A stretch of DNA of 64,000 nucleotides, taken from Mytilus trossulus (taxonomy: Eukaryota). Position 1 is the stretch's first letter; each line of letters starts with the position of its first letter. The notes under the pieces were generated by a model that was not told the origin of the DNA, did no database searches, and saw only the letters and a program-made list of their open reading frames with translations. This document shows positions 10,973 to 33,533 of this stretch, in pieces. Made by a program: the position numbers and the translations under genes. The stretch spans positions 6,014,001 through 6,078,000 of the forward strand of contig NC_086373.1 in the NCBI RefSeq assembly GCF_036588685.1, in the 5' to 3' direction.

Positions 10973-11015
10973 AGTATACTATTCTTGTGCAAGTCATTAC
11001 ATGATATAAACCAAT

Positions 11016-12389
11016 ATGGTACACAACATTATGAATCCACTTGGTAAAATGGTTATGGCTTTGTTGTTGTTTGTAACCCCCGTAGAATCAATGGCTGTCA
11101 ATGGTTTAAATCAACAAGTACAACGGGACATTGGGGCCATCGGCGCTGGTGGACAAGCACTGGATTTAGCCTTTGTTATGGACTGTACTGGGAGCATGGG
11201 ATCGTATATAGATACCGCCAGAAAACATATTCAGGCTATTGTTGACGAAATTGTGACTTCTTCTAACACCACCGTTCGCTTAGCTTTGATTGAATATCGA
11301 GATCATCCTCCAGAGGATAATACCTTTGTTACAAAAACATATAATTTCACAGATTCCGTGTTCATGATGAAAATTTGGCTAAATGCTGCGCGCGCCTCTG
11401 GAGGTGGTGATGGTCCCGAGGCAGTGGCTGAAGCTTTGTTTAAAGCCACGAAACTGTCATGGCGTCCCGAGGCTACCAAAATAACTGTTCTGATTTCTGA
11501 TGCACCTCCCCATGGACTTGTTCCGTCACAAGACAGTTCGTTCCCCAACGGATCTCCTACTGGGCACGATCCAATGAAGATAGTTCGTGACTTAGCTCAA
11601 ATGGGGGTGACCTTATATGTTATTGGTTGTGAACCCGCTATACTTCCATATAAAGACTTTTTCATGGCACTTGACTATTTGGCCGGTGGGCAATACGTAC
11701 CTCTGTCGAGACCAGAGCTTCTAGTAGATGTTATAACAGGCGGGGCTAAAGAAGAACTATCGATTCAGAAATTCGAAAAACTTGTGAATGCTGAGGTCCA
11801 GAAAGCTATTGCAGCAGGAGGCACTGTTGATAAACAAAAAATTTCACAAACTATATATAACCAGCTAGTAAATACGGGAGCAACGTCAACTCATTTGTTA
11901 TTAAACAACGCAACGTTAGAAGGCACAACTGATGCTGCAAAACAAATAGCATCGGCTACATCTATGGCGGAAGTGCGACTTCATTTTCATATGGCCACTG
12001 CAAAACCTGTCTTTTATCCAACATATGTTCCAGGACACGGCGTTTATCCAACGTATGCTCCAGGACACGCTTATCTTTCAGGGACGTTTGCACCTCGTCC
12101 TACACTTGGTCCAATATACACTTATCCGCCAGGATATACGGGGAAGACTTTTCCACCAACTCTACTACCAACTTTCGCTCGATATCTTACTCCAGGTCCA
12201 GGATACACATATCCACCTTTTAAACCAGCTGTTTTAACAGGATCAGGAGGCTCCGGTTCTGGAACAGGCACAGGAGCTTTAACAGGAACGGGAGGATCCG
12301 GTTCCGGTACCGGGGACACATATAGTGCTGTTCATTCGGGAATTAGTATCGATCAAGTCGATAGATTAGTACAGAAAGCTTTTGGTTGA
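11016..12389 (+). CDS. Intronless secreted von Willebrand factor A (VWA) domain protein with Tyr/Pro/Thr/His-rich repeats and Gly/Ser/Thr linker, copy 1
   Basis: 457-aa ORF. Hydrophobic N-terminus MVMALLLFVTPVES (true start probably 11031 or 11049). VWA beta-A/MIDAS LDLAFVMDCTGSMG, then EYRDH, GGGDGPEA and ISDAPPHG (vwkA-like VWA subtype). YPTY(A/V)PGH repeats. AATAAA downstream at ~12445. Confidence 0.9.
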   Translation: MVHNIMNPLGKMVMALLLFVTPVESMAVNGLNQQVQRDIGAIGAGGQALDLAFVMDCTGSMGSYIDTARKHIQAIVDEIVTSSNTTVRLALIEYRDHPPEDNTFVTKTYNFTDSVFMMKIWLNAARASGGGDGPEAVAEALFKATKLSWRPEATKITVLISDAPPHGLVPSQDSSFPNGSPTGHDPMKIVRDLAQMGVTLYVIGCEPAILPYKDFFMALDYLAGGQYVPLSRPELLVDVITGGAKEELSIQKFEKLVNAEVQKAIAAGGTVDKQKISQTIYNQLVNTGATSTHLLLNNATLEGTTDAAKQIASATSMAEVRLHFHMATAKPVFYPTYVPGHGVYPTYAPGHAYLSGTFAPRPTLGPIYTYPPGYTGKTFPPTLLPTFARYLTPGPGYTYPPFKPAVLTGSGGSGSGTGTGALTGTGGSGSGTGDTYSAVHSGISIDQVDRLVQKAFG

Positions 12390-14453
12390 TTTCACATCTA
12401 ACCGTTGGATTACGGATTATTATATCAATAAGTTCATAAATCATAATAAATATCAAAGAATAAGGTAATTAAATTATTTATGCATATTTGATTGGCCTAG
12501 AAATTACGGAATCTGTACATGTCAGTTTTTACCGTGACTATATGTCTGTCGACGTCGTAAACTGTTTTTTTCTCTACAATTGTATTGGTTTATTGAGTGC
12601 TGCGTCTCAGTAAATCAAAGTTTGTAGTTATTTGGTGATATGGTATGTCAGATGATTTAGTGATTGACAAATAAAATTGAGAAAAGAAATGGGGAATGCG
12701 TCAAAGCGACAACAACCCGGCCATAGAGCAGACAATAGCAGAAGCACACCAATGGGTCTTCAATATAGCGAGAAACTCCCGCACCCGTAGGCGGTCTTCA
12801 GCTGGCCCCTTAAAAATATGCATACTAGTACAGTGATAATGGAGGTCATACTAAACTCCGAATTATACACAAGAAACTAAAATTAAAAATAATACAAGAC
12901 TTATAACGGCCAGTGTCTCCTGACTTGGGACAGGCGCAATATTGCGGCGAGGTTAAACATGTTTATGAGATCTCAACCCTCCTCTATACCTTTAGCCAAT
13001 GTAGAAAAGTTAACGCATAACAGTACGCACATTTAAATTCAGTTCAAAAGAAGTCCGAGTCCGATGTCAGAAGATGTAACAAAAGTAAATAAATAACAAT
13101 AACAATTATACATAAATAACAACAGACTACTAGCAGTTTAGTGACATGCCAGCTCCAGAGCTCAATTAAACTGATTGAATGATTATGTCTTCATCCTATG
13201 AATATTAAGCTCACCAGTTAGGGGTTTAGTATAGTATTATCAGAAAATAAATGAGAAGAACATAACCCGTGTCATGCCAACAACTGTTTTTTTTTTAAAT
13301 AAATGTGTTTAGTTCCGATGCAAAGATCCTTTAAGTGAATCAATATTAAAGCCAAAATATGTAATCTTTAATGATCTGACAACAGTATCATAACTATATC
13401 CCTTCTTGATAAGTATGTTTAAAGGTTTTGTAAGCTTTTAAAGTGAAAACTGACATTTTGTGCTTTGTAAAAAATATTACCATAAAAGATTGGATGTGAA
13501 ATACCTGAGAGTATAAGATGTCTGGATTTTGAGTTATATTTACGAATTATTTCCTAATACCGATGATAAAATTTAGTAAATGTTTTGACACGTTTGTGAT
13601 ATCGAAAACCCTGGTGTAATATTTTTTCAGTAATATATACATAAATTTTTCTCGCTAAAATCTTATACGTTGTTACATACACGAGCGAATCGAACAAGTT
13701 GAGATATATAAACACCATACGAATAGTACTTGCATGCAGGTTCTCAGATACCATTGCCCATATTAATATCACATTATCCAGAAATGCACATTATGTGTTC
13801 CTCTCCTAGCTTTTTTAAAATCATAATCATTGCATTGAGTGTATTCCTCCCTGACAGTCTTGAACATTAAAACTAATATTAAATAGAATGGTTAGTATTG
13901 GGTTCAGGTTGACTGCCATTGTGCAAAACAGTTTAATATAGAACCCTATGGACAAAAACTCTTTTTTGTCAGAAAACACTGTAGAACTTGTAAGTGTTCA
14001 CACTTTTTGAAATTTGAAAAAAATATGTCTATGTCTGAACCGTTCGCCCTTCGCTGTCGTGTAACAAAAGACATAAAATAAAACAAAATCACTCAAGATA
14101 GTCCTTACAGAGTCTGAGACAAATACACTCAAATTTGAAATCACCTTCTATTTACCTTCTGAAATGTGCTATCGTTACTTGAGATTTAACTATAAAAATC
14201 GCAACTCCTCAATATTATGCCATCTCTGGTATGTAGTCAAATAAAACAAAGGACACAATTATGTAAGGTTAATAGGTGGGTCAGATTTATAAAGATTGAT
14301 GTGAAACACGCCTACTAAGATATCGGAATCATGGTAAACAGGAACTGACCGTCTTTTATTGGGACTGGTGTAAACAAAACAGGTGCCAGTAGAATTATCT
14401 TTGATGACAAATCTGTATATAAATAAGTATACTATTCTTGTGCAAGTCATTAC

Positions 14454-15707
14454 ATGATACAAACCGATATGGTACACCACACTATGAATCCACTTGGTAA
14501 AATGGTTATGGCTTTGTTGTTGTTTGTACCGCTCGTAGAATCAATGGCTGTCAATGGTTTAAATCAACAAGTACAAAGGGACATTGGGGCCAGCGCTGGT
14601 GGACAAGCACTGGATTTAGCATTTGTTATGGACTGTACTGGAAGCATGGGCTCGTATATAGATACCGCCAGAAAACATATTCAGGCTATTGTTGACGAAA
14701 TTGTGACTTCTTCTAACACCACCGTTCGCTTAGCTTTGATTGAATATCGAGATCATCCTCCAGAGGATAATACCTTTGTTACAAAAACATATAATTTCAC
14801 AGATTCCGTGTTCATGATGAAAATTTGGCTAAATGCTGCGCGCGCCACTGGAGGTGGGGATGGTCCCGAGGCAGTGGCTGAAGCTTTGTATAAAGCCACA
14901 AAACTGTCATGGCGTCCAGAGGCTACCAAAATAACTGTTCTGATTTCTGATGCACCTCCCCATGGACTTGTTCCGTCACAAGACAGTTCGTTTCCCAACG
15001 GATCTCCTACTGGGCACGATCCAATGAGGATAGTTCGTGACTTAGCTCAAATGGGGGTGACCTTATATATCATTGGTTGTGAACCAGCTATTCTTCCATA
15101 TAAAGACTTTTTCATGGCACTTGACTATTTGGCCGGTGGGCAATATGTACCTCTGTCGAGACCAGAACTTCTGGTTGATGTTATAACAGGTGGCGCACAA
15201 GAAGAACTGTCGATTCAGAAATTTGAAAAGCTCGTGCAGGTTGAGGTCCAGAAAACTATTGCAGCAGGAGGCACTGTTGATAAACAGAAAATTTCACAAA
15301 CTGTATACAACGAGCTAGTTAATTCGGGAGCAACATCGACTCATTTGTTATTAAACAATGCGACGTTAGAAGGCACAACGGATGCCGCAAAACAAATAGC
15401 ATCGGCTACATCTATGGCGGAAGTACGACTCCATTTCCATATGGCAACTGCAAAACCTTACACGTATCCAACATATGTTCCAGGACACCCCGTTTTTTAT
15501 CCAACTTATGCTCCAGGACACGCAGTTTTTTATCCAACGGCTGCTCCAGGATATAAAGCTCCAGGAGGAACGTTTACAGGAACAGGAACAGGAGCGTTAA
15601 CAGGGTCAGGAGGATCCGGTTCCGGTACCGGGGACACATATAGTGCTGTTCATTCGGGAATAAGTGTTGACCAAGTCGACAGATTAGTACAGAAAGTTCT
15701 TGGTTGA
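14454..15707 (+). CDS. Intronless secreted VWA domain protein, copy 2 (shorter repeat region)
   Basis: 417-aa ORF almost identical to copy 1 over the VWA domain; true start probably at MNPLG (14484) or MVMALL. Confidence 0.9.
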   Translation: MIQTDMVHHTMNPLGKMVMALLLFVPLVESMAVNGLNQQVQRDIGASAGGQALDLAFVMDCTGSMGSYIDTARKHIQAIVDEIVTSSNTTVRLALIEYRDHPPEDNTFVTKTYNFTDSVFMMKIWLNAARATGGGDGPEAVAEALYKATKLSWRPEATKITVLISDAPPHGLVPSQDSSFPNGSPTGHDPMRIVRDLAQMGVTLYIIGCEPAILPYKDFFMALDYLAGGQYVPLSRPELLVDVITGGAQEELSIQKFEKLVQVEVQKTIAAGGTVDKQKISQTVYNELVNSGATSTHLLLNNATLEGTTDAAKQIASATSMAEVRLHFHMATAKPYTYPTYVPGHPVFYPTYAPGHAVFYPTAAPGYKAPGGTFTGTGTGALTGSGGSGSGTGDTYSAVHSGISVDQVDRLVQKVLG

Positions 15708-23105: not shown

Positions 23106-24483
23106 CTTGTTAACTAAGGTAGTCACCTACAATCAAAATATTTCATTAGTTTTTTTTAAATAGCTAGAACTGTAAATGCATAACAGCTTAACCAAGTTCG
23201 GTGATACAAGTATGATAACCAATTTATTGTTATGGGGTCTATTTTATGACGTCAAACCTCAAAATTCAATTACTTTTACATTTAACTGTTCCTGTTGGTT
23301 ACAATGAACATGATTTTTCATAACACATCATGTCAGAGGGAACACACATTTTATCTATAGACTAGAGAAAAGAGGTAATACAAAAATTATTATGTTGTAC
23401 TGTTACATTTAAAATGTACACCACTGTCCCAGGTTAGGGGAGAGTTGGGAACCTGCCAAAACGGTCATCCTACCATATCCCGCTTACACTATGTACTTTT
23501 ATATCAATTCTTATTTTTTCTAATTTCCACAGCACAATGATTTTACTTACACAAGTTGTGCTTACTATACAATACACCTTATCGCTAATCCCAGCTACTT
23601 GAACTTTTGACACAAACAACAATCACTTTTCGATTGTGGTGTCAGATCTTTTGTTTCATTACTTCAAAATTTTACAGGAACCTGTGTGATATCCAGTAAT
23701 GGCTGACAAATAGCATAAGGTGTATTGACGTTATCCTTTGTCACACTTAAACCCCAATGACAATGTTTAACAATTCAAATGAGATAACAGCCTAATAAAA
23801 TTTGTATGCAAAACTTGAATGAAAAACAAATGTGTAACATATAAACAAAGGACAACAACTGAATTACAGGCTCCTAATAATGACGTGGGGCAGGCAATAG
23901 AATTGACTTTTCAATATTTCTCCTACAGGAAAAAACAGAGCAGTTGCTTGGAAACACACATAGGATTTCCCATACTTTCATACTATTTCCACCTCTTTCT
24001 AAAAAATCTGCCCCCTATCCAACATGGCCGAACTAACCGTGAAGAGCCCTAATCACAAAATTTATATTAAAACATAGTTTTAAAATGTCAGAACATCATT
24101 TGCATATCCATCTTGTAAATTTGACATAGATATAAATAAGTATGCCTTATGATAAAATATTTAAGATGTGCTTTGAGGATGATTAGTAAAGAAGACGTAA
24201 TATTTTAGAATTTAATTTCCGATTTTCTCAAATTCCCAGTTGGCAAGACAGGTAATACTTTTCATTTTTTTCACTTCTTTAAATGCATTAATCAGATGAC
24301 AAAACGTTGAGGGGGTTCCCAATATTTATTTAGTACAACATATATGAACATTTTAATGTAATTGAGGAGAATTGGGTGTATAATAAGTAGTACCAACTCG
24401 TGTGTTCGCAAAGCAAGTTAAAAAGGAAGCACATGTGAGATTACCCAGAATGCAATATAAGTGGGTAATATTTCGTCCCTTAC

Positions 24484-24505: not shown

Positions 24506-25062
24506 CTTGCTGCCGTCTGCAATCAAGCGTTTGACGTTTAAACAGACGACAAAGCTTACGCATTACATCAAGAGTACTAGACGATACAAAGTTTTCATGA
24601 AAAGTGAGAAAAGATGGCGGAGTGACAGCACATTTTGTTGAGAAGAATTTTATCTCATTGAGCACCCCACTTGGTTTAATACACATTTATTTTGTGAATC
24701 ACAAGACAAATACTAAATAATACGTATCTCTTTTAAAGATTTTACCCTGCATTTGTAATTTTAGTGCCGATAAATAAGGGTTGCGTCCCTCTCAGTATTT
24801 TCACGCCATTGTTGGCAAACACTTGCACCTTTTTTCTTGTTCTCTCCGTTCATTTACATTCTCATCTTAAGATCGTGTCATCTTTTTAAAGTTTTATTTA
24901 TAATTGCAAACTAGTACGATACAAATATTTAGGTGTACACTTCCTGTCAAGGTCGTTGAACTGCTTTGCACATAGAAACTTTAGAAAGCTATATATATTT
25001 ATATTATATATAAGTACTCTCATCTGGAACTAACATTTGCTAGACCATCATAATAAATCCAC

Positions 25063-25800
25063 ATGTCAGAGGCTAAGCTTGTTAAATACCTACAGAAAGT
25101 TAAACACGAACCGCCTACTGGAAGACGAAAAAGAATACCCGTTATCCTATCAGACAGCAAAGGATTCTCCCTGCGAAATAACATTGTAGAACAGTTTGAC
25201 AATAATATTGTATGGTGGTGTAAGAAATCAGTCAAAGTTGAACAAAGTTATAGCTGGCTAAAAAGAATATTGCCAACAAAATTATATCAGCTTGGAGATA
25301 TTGCCCTCTACATCTGGCTAGGTACATGCAACCTTACTACAAAAACTCCAGACTCAAAATATATAAACCTTACATCAGAAGAAATAAGCTCCATTGAACA
25401 TTTAACAAAACATCTGGAAAACTTCAAAAAACTTATTGCTGAATATCCACAGGTTAAACTTACATTTCTAGAAATTCCAGTATATTCGATCAAGGCCTAC
25501 AACCAACATCAAGGACATACTGAACCCCTTATATTTAGAGATCAAGACAAAGCATTAGCAGAGCAAATACATATTGTTAACCAAGAGATTCGAAATCTAA
25601 ACCAGTCAATAAATACACACTCTCCAGATTTCTCAGTATTTTTAAAAGCCAGATCACAACACCGCACTCGGTCACATAGAGATACTTGGGAATACTTTAA
25701 CTTCAACCTTTATAGAGACGGCATCCACCCTAGCCAACATCTAGCCCAAGTCTGGCTACGAGAAATTGCAAAACGTATCAAAATTGATTGCTGGGAATAG
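25063..25800 (+). CDS. ORF0: SGNH/GDSL esterase-like protein, 245 aa
   Basis: Block I ILSDSKG, block III WLGTCNL and block V DGIHP in the expected order and spacing. Confidence 0.8.
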   Translation: MSEAKLVKYLQKVKHEPPTGRRKRIPVILSDSKGFSLRNNIVEQFDNNIVWWCKKSVKVEQSYSWLKRILPTKLYQLGDIALYIWLGTCNLTTKTPDSKYINLTSEEISSIEHLTKHLENFKKLIAEYPQVKLTFLEIPVYSIKAYNQHQGHTEPLIFRDQDKALAEQIHIVNQEIRNLNQSINTHSPDFSVFLKARSQHRTRSHRDTWEYFNFNLYRDGIHPSQHLAQVWLREIAKRIKIDCWE

Positions 25801-26101
25801 GAATAACTTGAAAACTCCATTGATAAATAGTTGCTGCTGTGGTCTGCATGGAATGCCAAGCTAACCTACACAGCAACTAGCTATTCAACAACAAATTACA
25901 AGTGTCAACCTAAATCATTATTGATATCAGCTTATTCAAGCCATCTACCTAACACCACCAATACCTATTACAACAACCGCTTACACTCGAATATTTATAT
26001 TATACTAAATTATATGTGCAGTCTGCCTGGAATGCCAAGCTAACTAGCACAATAATTAAAAACAGTATACTAATATAATAGCAGGCGAATCCATTTCAAG
26101 C

Positions 26102-28399
26102 ATGGAAATAAATAAGGTAGCGAGACCGTCAAGATTAAGAAACCCTCCAGTGATATACACGCCAAGTAGTATATACCAAGGAAAATCACAGCAAATGTCG
26201 TACAACTTAAATGCAAGAAAAGCGCTAGATAAGAAAATGGACGCTGCTGAAAGGGAACTGGAAATAGAAATAACATTGAAAGCTGGAACCTTAGTCATCA
26301 CTTGTAATGCAGGGACATATGAAGCACTCAAACATGCCATATACAAATACTATAGCGAATCCAAAGAGCTAAGTTACAAACTACATACAAAAACAAGTAA
26401 GGCCAATATAGGCAGCTCTAGCAATCAAATCATGACTGTTGAAGAGTCGTTATCAATCAAGTTTAAGAACACAGCTAAATCCAAACGACAACTATACCGT
26501 ATCAACATGTTCAACACAACATGCAAAATAGATGCTAATGGGTATATGCTACAGGACTTTATTTCCAAAGACTTGCTCAACATCTGTGAGGACTTCAAAG
26601 CTGACAAATCCTACAAGAATATAAACATGCAAATCAAGAACATCTGTTTAAGTGCTAAAGAGCAGTTAGATAAAGCAAATGGTCTAAGCAACAGTGGAAA
26701 AACTGTAGACAAAGGGACAATCAAACCAGCTGATACTGCAGTACATACTTCAACAACATGTGAGATCAACCCAAACCAATACAATCTGCTCAAAAATAGA
26801 CCAAACCATAATGACAACACATTACAGCAGATGGCAATAGAAGAAATATCTACATGCTCAAGGGAAGGAGAAGAACCTACTAATCAAAAAATACAGAATG
26901 ACAAAATCCTAGCAATTGATGAGAGCCGAGAAACCTCTAAGACCGAGGAAAACAGTGAATGCCAAGGATGTGAACAACCGATATCAAATACATCAGCAAT
27001 TGAGTGTTCAGCATGCAAACTCTGGTTTCACACTTCATGTGAAGGGCTAACTGAATATCACATGGAAAACCACATATATGACTCATTTACATGCTCCTAT
27101 TGCAAAACAATAGATCTAACAATACCATTTGAAGATAGACCATACCAAGAAGAGACTCTACCAAAGCAAATTATGAACAGCACTCATATAGAAGTCTCAA
27201 ATGAACAACTAAATTTAACTACCCCCCAAACCAACATTCATAAAGAAAACAAACTAGAAGGAGGGGTAACCAACAGATCTGAACACCAGGAAGATGAAGT
27301 ACCAACAGCTCCACAGATCTCTAGAAACTCTGAACAAAGCAATACGGCTCCTCTAATTTATGATGCAAAAACTAAACCAAAAAGAGCCAAGAAAAGAGAT
27401 ACAGAGCAAATCATAGAGCTACAACTTGCTGAAAGTAAAGCAAAAATCTCAAACTTGGAAGAGCTAAACAAAGAATATAGGACCACCATCGATATGCTAT
27501 CAGTCAAGCTAGGCATACCTTCGTCTGTGGGATATAGCAATTCACATCCAACAATGACACATGCTACTAGTATCAGTGCGCTAGAATCCAAAATGGAACA
27601 TCAAATTGAAAAACTAAGGATGGATTTCCAACATCAAATGCAGATTATGAGTCTTGAACTCAGACATACTTCAGAAATTAATGAACTGAAATTGAAACTC
27701 CAGTTAAAGGAGACAGAATGCAACAATATTATGCAAAACTCAAGTCTTGGAACAAACAGCAATACTTACACAATACCAAGTAATAACTGGTATGGATTTT
27801 CAATGCGCAATACTCAACAAACAAATCCACCACCAAATTGGTATGGAATGCCAGGACATAATACTCATGCTACTTATCAGCCAACTCCACCGCCAGTATA
27901 TCAACATATGAGACCACAAGTAGTCATCAACCCGTATGGTAGACAGCCTTACCAAACCATGCCAGCCACAAATCTCCAACACCCTTCAATACCATCATTT
28001 ATCCAGAGGTCACATCATCCTCAACATACAGGGAATAGTCATATACATAATCAAAGGCACAGGGCAATGCATGAACAAATACCAACACAAATGAACAACA
28101 AGGGTACAAAACAACAGCAGAAGGTCATCAACACGCTAGAAAAACCACTGCAAGAACAAAGAAAGGTACAAGATAAACCTCCCTATAAACCAACTCAAAC
28201 AGATAACTCAACAGATATTGGCATCCCTACAACGGCTAATGAACCAAACCACCAGCACTCTACAACTACCATCAATAGAGAAAAACAAAAAGAGAAGCAA
28301 ACCCAGGAGACAAATAAACACTCTACTGAACAGCATTTTTTAGGGGTAGACAGAGCCTCAACAGTGGACTGGCTAACCAAAACGCCAACATCACAATAG
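26102..28399 (+). CDS. ORF1: PHD-finger / coiled-coil retrotransposon protein, 765 aa
   Basis: C4HC3 PHD finger CQGC...IECSACKLWFHTSC...FTCSYC; heptad-like coiled-coil segments; Q/P/H/N-rich low-complexity C-terminus. Confidence 0.85.
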   Translation: MEINKVARPSRLRNPPVIYTPSSIYQGKSQQMSYNLNARKALDKKMDAAERELEIEITLKAGTLVITCNAGTYEALKHAIYKYYSESKELSYKLHTKTSKANIGSSSNQIMTVEESLSIKFKNTAKSKRQLYRINMFNTTCKIDANGYMLQDFISKDLLNICEDFKADKSYKNINMQIKNICLSAKEQLDKANGLSNSGKTVDKGTIKPADTAVHTSTTCEINPNQYNLLKNRPNHNDNTLQQMAIEEISTCSREGEEPTNQKIQNDKILAIDESRETSKTEENSECQGCEQPISNTSAIECSACKLWFHTSCEGLTEYHMENHIYDSFTCSYCKTIDLTIPFEDRPYQEETLPKQIMNSTHIEVSNEQLNLTTPQTNIHKENKLEGGVTNRSEHQEDEVPTAPQISRNSEQSNTAPLIYDAKTKPKRAKKRDTEQIIELQLAESKAKISNLEELNKEYRTTIDMLSVKLGIPSSVGYSNSHPTMTHATSISALESKMEHQIEKLRMDFQHQMQIMSLELRHTSEINELKLKLQLKETECNNIMQNSSLGTNSNTYTIPSNNWYGFSMRNTQQTNPPPNWYGMPGHNTHATYQPTPPPVYQHMRPQVVINPYGRQPYQTMPATNLQHPSIPSFIQRSHHPQHTGNSHIHNQRHRAMHEQIPTQMNNKGTKQQQKVINTLEKPLQEQRKVQDKPPYKPTQTDNSTDIGIPTTANEPNHQHSTTTINREKQKEKQTQETNKHSTEQHFLGVDRASTVDWLTKTPTSQ

Positions 28400-31300
28400 G
28401 AACTCTAAACATCCAGAATATAAAAGGCAACTCCATTTACCTACAAACTATTTTGAAATCAATAGATATACTCTGTATCCAAGAACACTGGATCCTATCA
28501 CTGGAAAAGAATATCATAAAATATATCAACAAAGACTTTATATCTTACGTCAAATCCGTTGATGATGAAGATCCCATAATAGACCATAAAACAATCAGAG
28601 GGTATGGAGGAACAGCAATTTTTTGGAATAAAGATCTAGAGAAATCAATAAATATAATGCCTGATGGTAACAACCGCATCCAAGTAATCACAATCAACAG
28701 CAGTCCACTGAAAACATGTCTAGTCAATGCCTATATGCCATCCTTACAAGTAGCAGGAGATCTTGACTATAAAGACACATTAGATCAGATCTCAGAAATA
28801 ATAGAAAAATACAAAGACTCTTACCAGACAATTATTTGTGGGGACATGAATGCTTCATTACACAGAGATAACAGAAGACGTGACCAAAATTTAAAGGAGT
28901 TCATGAGCAACAACAATCTATCTTTAGCCAACAGATATCCAAAGGCTCCAACATTTTTCCATCACAATGGGAAGTACACCTCCCAAATAGACTACATAAT
29001 GTTCCCCGAAACTACAACTGGGATACTAAACTCCAATATAGTCATAGAGGACAGACATCCTACGAACACCTCAGATCGTGACGGCTAATATACCCATGAA
29101 GATCGACAAAACCTCAACTCAACTAGTCAAAATCTACACTAGACCAAATTGGGCAAAATGTGATAAGAACATATACACATCAACGTTAAAACAAGAGCTG
29201 GAATGCGAAAGCCGAGGAAAAGAAAGTAGTGTGGAGGAACGTATCAAACTTCTTGAAAAATCAATTCACAAGGCAGGAAAAAAATCCATACCCAAATATA
29301 GACAACTCAAAAGTCTAAAAACAGTAGGCAAGGGTATTTGGAACAGAAAAATAAGCGAAGCATCTAGAGACTCAAAGAATGCCCACACTGTATGGAAAAG
29401 GAAAATGAATAGTCATCAAAATGCTGACATGGAAAAAATCAATCTGACTATCAAAAAGCGAAAATTAAGGCAGCTACAAAGACAAGCCTACGCCTCCAAG
29501 AAAGAAAAAATTATCAACGATATCATGCAAGCCTCCCAGAAAGACAGCAAAACCTTTCATAAACTTGTGAAACAACAAAGATCTAAACATGATACCAACA
29601 CAGATATACTATATATTGGAAACAAAGCGTTCGAAGGAGAAAAGATTCTATCAGCCTGGCAAACACATTTTGAAACACTGGGAACACCAAACTTTGACGA
29701 AAATATTTTTGACCTGGAGCGTTTAGAATTATCAAAATTACAAAATAACATCATACCGGAATTGGACATTCAAAAAGAAGAAATAACAAAAGCTACACCA
29801 ACAGAAATTGAATCTGCAATTAGAAAATTAAATACAGGAAAAGCTTCCGATGAGAACGGCATCGTATCGGAACACTACATACATGCCATTGATGTAATCA
29901 CTGATGAAATAACTGACATTATAAATCAAATTTTTGAAGAATTAGACGTACCTCAGAGTCTAAAAAATGGAATTTTGACACCTGTTTTGAAAAAGAAAAA
30001 AGATAAAACTATACCTGGAAACTACAGAGGTATTGTTGTCACTAGTATATTCTCCAAGATATTCGAAACAATCATAAAAGACAGACTAGAACCTGAGCTA
30101 TTTCCATCACAAAATAATCTACAGAGGGGATTCACAGAAGGCGCATCAAGCCTATTTACAGCTTTTATAGTCTCTGAAACAACTATGCTATACAAGTTCC
30201 TAAAGATTGTACTAGAGCTATTAACATTAGACGCAGAAAAAGCTTTTGACACTGTTACCCATGAAATAATGCTGAACAAAATGTTCCATGATGGGATTAG
30301 AGGAGATATGTGGGTATTACTGAAAAACATCTATACCAATATGACACTGCAAGTTAAATGGGGAGACCAAACAACCCAACATGTCAACATACAACAAGGA
30401 ATACGTCAAGGAGCTAAACTATCTACTCTCCTGTACAAAAGGTATAACAACACTATCCTAAATGCAATCACAGGCAGTCACCTTGGAGCAAAGATTGGTA
30501 CCATCTGCGTAGCCTCACCAACCTGTGCGGACGACATCGCATTACTAGGGGAACCGCATGATATACAAGCAATGCTCAATATTATTGAATTCCATACAAA
30601 GAGAGACATGGTGAAAATAAACCCAGAAAAATCAGAAGTCCTATGCACATCTAAAGGAAAGAATTACCAACAAAAAGCATACACCCTTGGTGAAAAACAA
30701 ATCAACAGAGTAGACAAGCTAAAACATCTTGGTATTACAAGGAACGTCAAAAGCAAAGTAAACACAGATGAAAGGCTAAAAACTGGTAGACAAACCATAT
30801 ATGCACTTCTAGGATCTGGCCTACATGCACGTACAGGAATGTGCCCGTTAGTACTCTACAAAATCTGGAAAACATATGTAGTCCCAAGATATCTCTATGG
30901 TCTGGAAGTACAAATCTGCACAAAAGCTGATATATATGAGCTGGAAAAACTACAGAGGAAAATATTTAGACAATTTCTCAGTCTACCTGAAAGGACTGCA
31001 TCCTCTGCCCTATATATTCTCCTAGGAGCTGAACCAGTTGAAACTGTACTAGACAGAAATATGCTTTCGTTATTCCTTACAATCTCTCGGCTAGATAATG
31101 CAATAGAAAAGAAAATCCTAAAATGGGAACTTGAAATCGGAAAAGACTTCACAGAATCCTTCATAAACAGAATAGACAAAATTTTAAATAAATACAGTCT
31201 GCCAAATCCAAAAGAAATTTTAGAAAACCCGCCATCAAAATACAAATGGAAAAACATGCTGAAAAAAGCCATAAATACATACTGGTCAAATATCTGGAAA

Positions 31301-31801
31301 GAGGAATGCTTGATAAAAACAACGATTAAGTACTTGACAATCCAGGAAAATCCTACTGAAAACCCACATAATATCTGGAAAGCTGCCAGAAACAATCAGA
31401 ATGACATTCGAAAAGCAGAATTCAAAAGTAGACTAATAACTGGAACCTACATGCTACAAACAACTAAAGCAAAATTTAGCAAAAATCAAATTTCAGGAAT
31501 ATGTGAGCTATGTACCAAAGCTGAGGAGGACATTAAGCACTTTCTGCTGGATTGTGAGTCTCTGGAGAGTGTTCGTCTAAAACAGATGAACAAACTTTTA
31601 TCTCTAACCGAGTTGAAAGGGGGAGGTGATAAAGCTATTTATAAAGAGGAGGATGTACTTCAAATTATAATGGACTGCTCGAAGCTATCAACAACTAGCC
31701 TATCCCACCTAAAAGCAATTGACCTGATAGAAATAGAAAAACAATCTCAAACTTTCTGTCACCAAATGCATAAGGAGCGCACCAAAATACAAACACGATG
31801 A
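28330..31801 (+). pseudogene. ORF2: apurinic-type endonuclease + reverse transcriptase + C-terminal CCHC, broken by one frameshift at ~29078
   Basis: APE motifs TLNIQNIK, LCIQEHW, ICGDMNA, SQIDYI, TSD. RT motifs NYRGI, LDAEKAFD, GIRQG, CADD, KHLG. C-terminal CELC...HFLLDC. The APE frame is open from 28330, upstream of the annotated TTG start at 28453. Confidence 0.92.
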
Positions 31802-33533
31802 TACATGAAGTAGAGGCTGAAGTGAAACCGCTGAATCATCCAAGTACTTTTCTTCAAGACCCTCAGCAAAGTGAATTTACATTTAAACAACAACACTGTT
31901 ATTGTATCCAGCTATATAAACTGCATATATATATATACAAAACGGAAAGATGGACCAAGCAGTCTGCATGGAATGCCAAGCTAACTGCCCCCATCTACGA
32001 CTAGATTAGCTGCTTACATCTAATTATATGCTAAGACCTTGGCAGAAGTTCACCTTTTACTTAAATTTTACGATATATACGAAAGTTTTCAGTTTTTTGT
32101 TCTTTTACTAGCTAAAGATATTTTTTTATTTTTTAATTGGTTACCTTATCTATTAAAAGCAATTACCATACTGCCATATTTTTAATCCCATTTATATTCT
32201 TTTTTGTTTGAACTACTTATTTTTACCTTTTACCCTTTGATTTTATCATTTTTCTGTCACATTTAAATCTTTTAATTCCTTAAACATATGATAGTAACGT
32301 CTCATAAAAAGGGATCAAAACTGTTTTTAAAAATCATAAACTCTAACCTAGGTAGAATCATAAATGATGTAAATAGCACATAATTTTAAACTATTGTTCT
32401 TAAAATTTACAGTTTTACCTGTATATAAGGTTTTTTAAAACTTAAGCACCACACCTCACTGTAAATATCTGTAAATATTTTAAAACCATATATCCCCAAG
32501 TGGGAGTGCTCCGATATATAACGGAGGAATATACCTGAACAGAACAGAACAGAAACCCTGGGAATAATTCAAACAAATAAGATTTACAGAATTGTGATAT
32601 GGAGAAAGTAAAGATATAAATGAATATCGTAAATGTTTTATAAACTATCCGATGGGACACGTATCTTAGAACTGCAACACCAGCTATAAACAATTAATTG
32701 ATTGTTAACAATTTGTCAAAAATATTCAATAAAAAAATAACTTCGGGTACTCGCTATCATGAAATTTCAAAAGTACACATCTCGAGCTTATGAGTGCATA
32801 TAACTATCCCAAGTATAGGAGCCAGAAGGTCTGGTACTTAGAAATATTTCAAACACTAGTCAGCAAGAATTGACGAGTTAAAATATTATGATATATTTTA
32901 AAGGTGAGCAAAACAAACAGACATGCTAGGTAAAAATGTTAAAAATTGGAGTATAAGTGTCAACAGCTTAGGCAATCTAATACTGGAGTAAAGAATCGAC
33001 AGATTGCAACAGAGTAGCATTATAACAGACTCAAGTTAGGAGCCGGTAATTCAGTGGTTGTCGTTTATTCTAACATGACGTCCTTCAAACGCTTTGAGTA
33101 CACACCCGTGGTAAAATATGAATATATTGCATTGGCTGTTCCGATCGTACTCCCACGTCATATGGTTTTTTTCTGAATGAAGTACCCGACGTCATAGAAT
33201 GATGACGTTATAATTTAAGCATTTTACGGGAAAATACACGCTTTTAATACCGAAAATCATCACAACAAGGAAACGTAAACAAATGATGCTAAAATGTGGT
33301 ATAAGCCAATTTTTTATATACATAGAAGACATATAAGAAAATTATCATTGAAATTCATCCAAATCTATCTAAATAAGTTTTGTGAATAGTTTTAGCTTGT
33401 CACTTATTCTGTTTGTTCCGTTCTTTTACGGCAATCTAAAAGTGCGTTAATTTATGGGAACGGCAAATAATGGCCTCCACCTAGAGCGCTTCGATCCAAA
33501 ACAATTGGCGTATTTGTTCTATTAGAATCGAAA

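Follow-up and report, generated by a model that had tools for sequence, protein, structure and literature searches.

An in-phase slippery heptamer at the ORF1-ORF2 junction of a Proto2 retrotransposon in Mytilus trossulus as a probable programmed -1 frameshift site

The translation of the second open reading frame (ORF2) of long interspersed elements (LINEs) is a long-standing question, and it is raised here by a Proto2 retrotransposon without long terminal repeats (non-LTR) in Mytilus trossulus. The copy lies on the forward strand at 24604..32554 of the analysed stretch of DNA (the window; 64,000 nucleotides (nt), contig NC_086373.1, positions 6,014,001 to 6,078,000), where its ORF1 (26102..28399, 765 amino acids (aa)) is followed in the -1 frame by an ORF2 (28342..31801) without its own ATG, consisting of a linker, an APE endonuclease (from 28390; Pfam PF03372, E=1e-12), a reverse transcriptase (RT; about 29993-30733, with a CADD motif) and a C-terminal Cys/His domain. 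How is this enzyme produced? At 28336..28342 the sequence T_TTT_TTA is in phase with ORF1 (CAT TTT TTA GGG), and since such a slippery heptamer is kept exactly at the ORF1/ORF2 overlap, the enzyme is likely to be produced as a fusion via a -1 slip. Judged by sequence comparison, we place the probability that the heptamer is a programmed -1 ribosomal frameshift site, giving a fusion of ORF1 and ORF2 with a length of about 1,900 aa, at roughly 0.87. With its phase retained over 56 diverged families, the heptamer offers a testable mechanism for ORF2 translation.

Conservation of the heptamer and its phase

A sequence-only reading of this locus had proposed a Gag-Pol-like -1 frameshift, and its description of the junction is largely borne out. 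The final stop of the -1 frame upstream of the shift site is the TGA at 28327..28329; beyond it the frame runs open and free of ATG into the endonuclease (FFRGRQSLNSGLANQNANITIGTLNIQNIKGNS from the shift site into the APE domain), the first in-frame ATG being 267 nt inside the endonuclease, and ORF1 ends with the TAG at 28397-28399, 57 nt past the heptamer with the stop included in the count. Two elements of that description need to be amended. The junction is indeed that of ORF1 and ORF2, but ORF1 is not the first ORF of the element, as an esterase ORF lies upstream of it. The predicted fusion length (747 + 1,155 aa) is valid for the family but not for the copy in the window, in which 8 nt are missing after 29077 relative to the 99% identical sibling L045; this deletion, which is also supported by comparison with one contig of presumed RNA origin, breaks ORF2 of the window copy and makes a full fusion from that copy impossible.

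The conservation check that had been suggested was carried out within the same genome and on relatives from other assemblies. A search with the endonuclease start gave at least 150 scored matches in the genome, and 142 copies were fetched. The first 70 loci clustered at 80% identity into 25 clusters, two of which were merged, resulting in 24 families with a median endonuclease identity of 36%; each was represented by one hand-picked copy (those of F8, F11, F13 and F22 being chosen for an intact junction), and the number rises to 26 with two more families in which the site is intact. In each of the 26 families whose junction is intact, an in-phase X_XXY_YYZ heptamer is present and the -1 frame is open from it to the endonuclease. 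Among the 24 representatives the heptamer is T_TTT_TTA in 22, T_TTT_TTT in one and C_CCT_TTT in one, every one in phase. Elsewhere an in-phase TTTTTTA is rare (3 of 12,967 ORF1 codons in 20 related families), and chance would place TTTTTTA in the overlap in 0.24 of the 24 families and a heptamer of any type in 3.6, against the observed 22 and 24. The -1 frame is open from the heptamer to the endonuclease in 24/24 families versus 1.1 expected, over spans of 42-375 nt; upstream of the heptamer it closes like that at any ORF1 position (median 13.5 versus 15 nt, p=0.87). ORF1 ends only past the start of the endonuclease coding sequence in 10 of the 24 families, and in L057, L060, L065, L080, L051 and L193 the overlaps reach 200-380 nt with both frames open past the heptamer.

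When no copies are hand-picked, 117 of the 142 are connected in the same way. According to a reading of the alignment rows, the 25 unconnected copies comprise 7 without the junction, 15 that keep the junction but have a stop, an indel or a rearrangement of their own, and 3 from further families, one of them apparently truncated and the other two having their run interrupted by a G. When runs of six T are scored without regard to phase, 98 of 100 own-genome copies and 27 of 27 external ones have the slip phase; within the ORF1 bodies such runs are spread 4/4/2 over the three phases. The run length itself varies in family F11 (L076, L132-L151), in which it extends from 5 to 11 among copies (T6 in two, T7 in two, T8 in two, T9 in six and T11 in one), the commonest form, T9, keeping the slip phase. 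In L061 a seventh T puts ORF1 and ORF2 in one frame, while its sibling L058 has a normal site.

From metagenomes and metagenome-assembled genomes (MAGs) 108 loci were collected, 53 of them with an endonuclease start; 4 of these had too little upstream DNA, 15 fell outside the clade and 34 belonged to it. The external sequences are contigs from such assemblies, and the demonstrated range is limited to bivalves. An in-phase heptamer is present in 30 of the 34 clade members (21 TTTTTTA, 6 TTTTTTG, 2 AAAAAAC and 1 CCCTTTT; L208 and L282 offer two candidates each, of which the one followed by GCCTC was taken), which together with the 26 own-genome families form a combined set of 56. A_AAA_AAC is among the most shift-prone heptamers listed in the 2016 review by Atkins (PMC5009743). 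In a FastTree phylogeny of 67 rows, 3 being dropped for short RT, TTTTTTG occurs on four branches and CCCTTTT on two. Because the heptamer type switches while the phase stays, what is conserved at the level of sequence is the pattern and its phase, not the letters. The arrangement was seen at none of 25 non-clade LINE junctions: 35 non-clade loci included 25 with an upstream ORF, of which 5 overlap ORF2 in the -1 frame, none with a heptamer there.

One group of these external sequences, L265-L288, consists of 24 LINE-bearing contigs that are deposited under bacterial MAGs with the titles Sedimenticola sp. or Ca. Thiodiazotropha, one ORF2 among them being annotated as a bacterial reverse transcriptase (P0005). 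These contigs are probably host-animal DNA.

Sequence context downstream of the heptamer

What could make a ribosome pause on this site? The frameshift signal of the human immunodeficiency virus (HIV) has a downstream stem-loop, and a modest hairpin had been suggested here as well. That suggestion did not hold up: the segment 28350-28385 folds with -4.7 kcal/mol (z 0.17), and the best of five folding windows reaches z -1.36, no better than shuffles. A scan for perfect stems past the heptamer gave z above 2 in 6 of the 56 elements; it concerns simple stems, and pseudoknots only where these need a strong first stem. A stable stem-loop or pseudoknot 5-9 nt downstream, as expected for a signal of the retroviral type, was not found.

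Two other characteristics are highlighted. One is the motif GCCUC, located at 28355..28359 in the window, 13 nt past the heptamer, as a candidate unstructured stimulator. As GCCTC in the DNA it is present in 11 of the 26 own-genome families versus 0.38 expected and in 14 of the 30 external elements versus 0.48 expected (25/56 in total), beginning at +11 in 11 elements, at +12 in 3 and at +13 in 11, so that it occupies three codon registers. The other is the distance to the frame-0 stop of ORF1. Within 30 nt of the heptamer this stop occurs in 0/56 elements versus 18 expected from shuffling and 30 from the local stop density, frame 0 being open for at least 10 codons past the heptamer in 56/56; exactly 30 nt past it the stop is found in 15/56. 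These 15 elements fall on three branches, mostly in one subclade, and their spacers are only 37% identical, with TAA, TAG or TGA as the stop. The 30-nt spacing places the stop 11 codons beyond the A-site codon, a distance of roughly one ribosome length in eukaryotes. In bacteria ribosome queuing corresponds to about 27 nt (PMC7544508), and in SARS-CoV-2 frameshifting is modulated by stop position, although a different route is proposed there (PMC8168617). It is equally possible that a tail of 10 residues or more is required by ORF1p, which would explain the stop distance as well.

A possible course of events can be outlined. Most ribosomes would stay in frame 0 and release ORF1p as the main product, while a minority would slip in tandem by -1 on U_UUU_UUA and continue from ORF1p(1-747) through the linker into APE and RT, adding 1,155 further residues. 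The rarity of the slip would fix a high ratio of ORF1p to ORF2p, and the fusion would tie the enzyme to ORF1p multimers, as Gag-Pol does. The pause that promotes the slip is probably not caused by a stem-loop; candidates are a GCCUC-bound protein sitting where the mRNA enters the ribosome and/or another ribosome in the act of terminating 11 codons further on, and the heptamer alone may also suffice at a low level. A more specific version is conceivable, though we consider it rather doubtful on the sequence patterns at hand: in this structure-free shift a ribosome terminating at the +30 stop would park the next ribosome on the heptamer, and other branches would use the GCCUC-bound protein. If true, the terminating ribosome would be a roadblock and a stimulator of frameshifting of a new class, through which the output of ORF2p would depend on the ribosome load on ORF1.

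Pairing of GCCUC with the 3' tip of the element was considered as another source of the pause and rejected for this clade, as cognate termini pair no better than non-cognate ones over 25 elements (p=0.06-0.39; p=0.78 with accessibility). The median net energy is -3.2 kcal/mol in these 25 elements; the terminal segment has some advantage in pairing over other segments from its own element (mean z about -1.1, with 11-13 of 25 ranking in the top tenth) but none over termini that were shuffled (mean z -0.42, first segment only), and the terminal stems vary without a matching change in GCCUC. A long-distance frameshift element paired with the 3' end was not recovered. In the host 18S rRNA there is one GAGGC, and the elements do not agree on a best pairing site, at most 12 of the 56 sharing one, so that pairing with 18S rRNA is not clearly supported.

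Weighing the explanations

On the one hand, the properties by which a frameshift signal is recognised are present: the heptamer is in phase, the -1 ORF is open from it, and both are conserved across relatives; no in-frame ATG lies between the heptamer and endonuclease codon 4 in 39 of the 56 elements. On the other hand, several observations weigh against a programmed frameshift. The families share ancestry, and the expected counts given above are therefore optimistic and overstate independence. An in-frame ATG does occur in the remaining 17/56, at scattered positions; together with the single frame of L061 this is the kind of variant that the sequence-only reading had named as damaging to its proposal. 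Four of the 34 external clade members (L202, L215, L222 and L266) have no canonical heptamer. There is no conserved downstream fold, the mean z from +6 to +75 being 0.07 with 3/56 below -2. GCCTC is absent in 31/56, and five own-genome families and two external elements have their ORF1 stop at a distance of more than 200 nt or 123 nt, so neither candidate stimulator is universal. Finally, no reads over the junction were found in three raw RNA runs. In L215 ORF1 and ORF2 are in one frame, split by a single TAG, which is perhaps a case of read-through or a private indel.

One alternative is that ORF2 is translated separately, either through termination-reinitiation or from a non-AUG codon, in the way suggested for L1 of mammals, the heptamer being incidental. 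Initiation of L1 ORF2 is thought to be AUG-independent (PMC5009743), 17/56 elements have an in-frame ATG near the endonuclease, and sister lineages do have an ATG-started ORF2, in some cases with TAATG or ATGA overlaps. Nevertheless, 39/56 elements lack the ATG and in 10/24 own-genome families ORF1 ends beyond the endonuclease start, and reinitiation leaves unexplained the heptamer, its phase, and a -1 frame kept open over as much as 375 nt back to the heptamer but not beyond it; we consider it improbable. Only slightly less credible is slippage of RNA polymerase on the T run, by which one added U would join the frames in some transcripts. The differing run lengths among the genomic copies of F11 and the fused frame of L061 with its T7 are in line with it, but a polymerase is indifferent to codon phase, yet the phase is fixed (98/100; 27/27), even the commonest expanded run, T9, retains it, and C_CCT_TTT variants occur. 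Six bases are also short for polymerase slippage. Five contigs of presumed RNA origin that bridge the site show no indel, though contigs drop rare variants.

These five contigs (X1, X2, X3, X6 and X7, from five runs) cross the site colinearly, without joints or gaps, and so bear also on the idea that the boundary between TTTTTTAG and G is a 3' splice site joining ORF2 to an upstream exon; here their evidence is weak, because the source runs are not recorded as RNA and contigs lose rare forms. Splicing would agree with the AG that follows the pyrimidine run in 19/26 own-genome families and with a public Mytilus gene model (P0004) that enters the ORF2 frame at this position, presumably by use of the AG. 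It fails because the AG is missing in 7/26 own-genome families and 19/30 external elements, and A_AAA_AAC offers no pyrimidine tract, so that we regard it as very improbable. The same low standing is given to the view that the letters are kept for protein-level conservation of a Phe-Leu-containing tail of ORF1p. Frame 0 reads FLxxGRAS in several families and its openness over at least 10 codons in 56/56 would fit, but FL elsewhere in ORF1 is coded T_TTT_TTA in only 3/16 cases, KN, PF and FF are also found at the site, GCCTC stands in three codon registers, and a conserved peptide gives no account of ORF2 expression.

A programmed -1 frameshift would relate this element to several known systems. 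HIV-1 gag-pol has the same U_UUU_UUA and a structural ORF followed by a -1 enzyme ORF with no separate start (PMC5009743), whereas the Proto2 element is non-LTR, lacks a conserved downstream stem-loop and shows no protease domain, so that its fusion would remain uncut unless a host protease acts. The pig virus PRRSV, with its nsp1beta/PCBP system, has a short C-rich motif without structure, located 11 nt 3' of the shift site (PMC5009743), comparable with GCCUC at +11 to +13; the motif is nevertheless different, GCCUC is found only in 25/56 Proto2 elements, and its binding protein is a candidate only. Closest in element type are the Dictyostelium APE-type LINEs TRE5-A and TRE3-A, for which a review states that a -1 frameshift is required for ORF2 (PMC5911963); they are amoebozoan and of another lineage, while the present signal was traced over 56 animal families. 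The -1 shift as such has thus already been stated for a LINE, and what is unusual here is the structure-free context and the conservation across the Proto2 lineage. For Paramecium LINEs a +1 shift or read-through is suggested (PMC5405496), and in passages of the Atkins review no -1 shift is listed for animal LINEs and the initiation of L1 is given as unknown (PMC5009743). No paper on a Proto2 frameshift or on a slippery heptamer in an animal LINE was among those listed by full-text literature searches, although Repbase or Dfam entries may mention such a shift. The rotifer Athena retroelements reportedly have a predicted -1 shift.

The frameshift interpretation predicts a fused ORF1-endonuclease-RT protein, not free ORF2p, and would make the families described here a source of dozens of naturally varied frameshift signals without RNA structure. 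For annotation it would mean that these ORFs are not to be taken as broken or spliced.

The element and its surroundings

The limits of the full-length element (about 7.95 kb, with three ORFs and a (GAACA)n tail) are defined by sibling L045, which is 99% identical across 24604-32549; by eye no target-site duplication was seen at 24604..32554. Its RT differs from that of M.edulis_315_LINE at 2 of about 215 residues (by-eye comparison), and M.edulis_315/319_LINE, which likewise have an APE-RT ORF2 and a short tandem tail, are classed as Proto2 by Martelossi et al. 2023 (PMC10294476, Table S7), in a paper whose main text does not contain the word 'frameshift'. On account of this near-identity the element is placed in the Proto2 clade (RTE superfamily), and APE followed by RT in one ORF, the lack of LTRs and the tandem 3' tail agree with the placement; our own trees were built without named reference elements. 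RTEX (RTE-X) had been a first guess based on the esterase and was dropped, as the matching family is labelled Proto2; Proto2 elements are sometimes called RTE-X by other classifiers (PMC10294476). The 21 own-genome families with usable RT form one clade (100/100), separate from 18 other LINEs. The RT active site reads CADD or VADD (one AADD) in the frameshifting group and YADD in four Repbase Proto2 references; in sister lineages with YADD or QADD ORF2 begins with ATG and the heptamer is absent.

The first cistron, ORF0 (25063..25800, 245 aa), encodes a protein that is predicted to have an SGNH/GDSL hydrolase fold with a Ser-Asp-His triad. Its structural model (pLDDT 92) matches SGNH hydrolases in Foldseek at E=1.6e-7, with no Pfam match and no PDB sequence match, and the residues S, D and H are invariant in 9 aligned sequences. 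The esterase recurs 5' of many related elements. An SGNH esterase 5' of the RT gene is also known from the LINEs ZfL2-1, CR1 and RTEX (PMC3905857), whereas in the Proto2 element it is a separate first ORF before the PHD-bearing ORF1, giving three ORFs. In passages of that paper the groups named are CR1, RTEX and Penelope and do not include Proto2.

As the second cistron, ORF1 begins 300 nt behind the ORF0 stop (25801-26101). It consists of an N-terminal alpha/beta domain, a PHD finger near 26960-27103 (PF00628, E=5.6e-4, under the curated cut-off), and coiled-coil-like and low-complexity parts. The model of the N-terminal domain has no Foldseek match and only weak KA1/TBP-like structural matches (best VIA Z 6.9, a value that common arrangements also reach).

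In families F1 and F3 a 24-nt motif containing a small hairpin core is repeated between ORF0 and ORF1 (25842..25865 and 26021-26045 in the window) and in the 3' untranslated region (31962-31986), and family F17 has a different repeated motif at the same places; besides the window copy, these observations concern L046 and L064/L067. The 24-nt motif may have a role in ORF1 translation on a three-ORF RNA or in assembly of the ribonucleoprotein. Immediately 5' of the tail two tandem hairpins are predicted (32493..32528), as they are in most relatives (the window copy and 24 relatives being compared), and both sides of the stems differ from family to family; judging from LINEs in general, they are likely the recognition signal for the RT. 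The units of the tandem tail vary by family.

At some distance the LINE is flanked by a 34-nt inverted repeat (88%; 23844-23877 and 33036-33069), probably two copies of another repeat. Further upstream, at 11010-12389 and 14427-15707, the window contains two similar long exons with von Willebrand A domains, which belong to host genes unrelated to the LINE.

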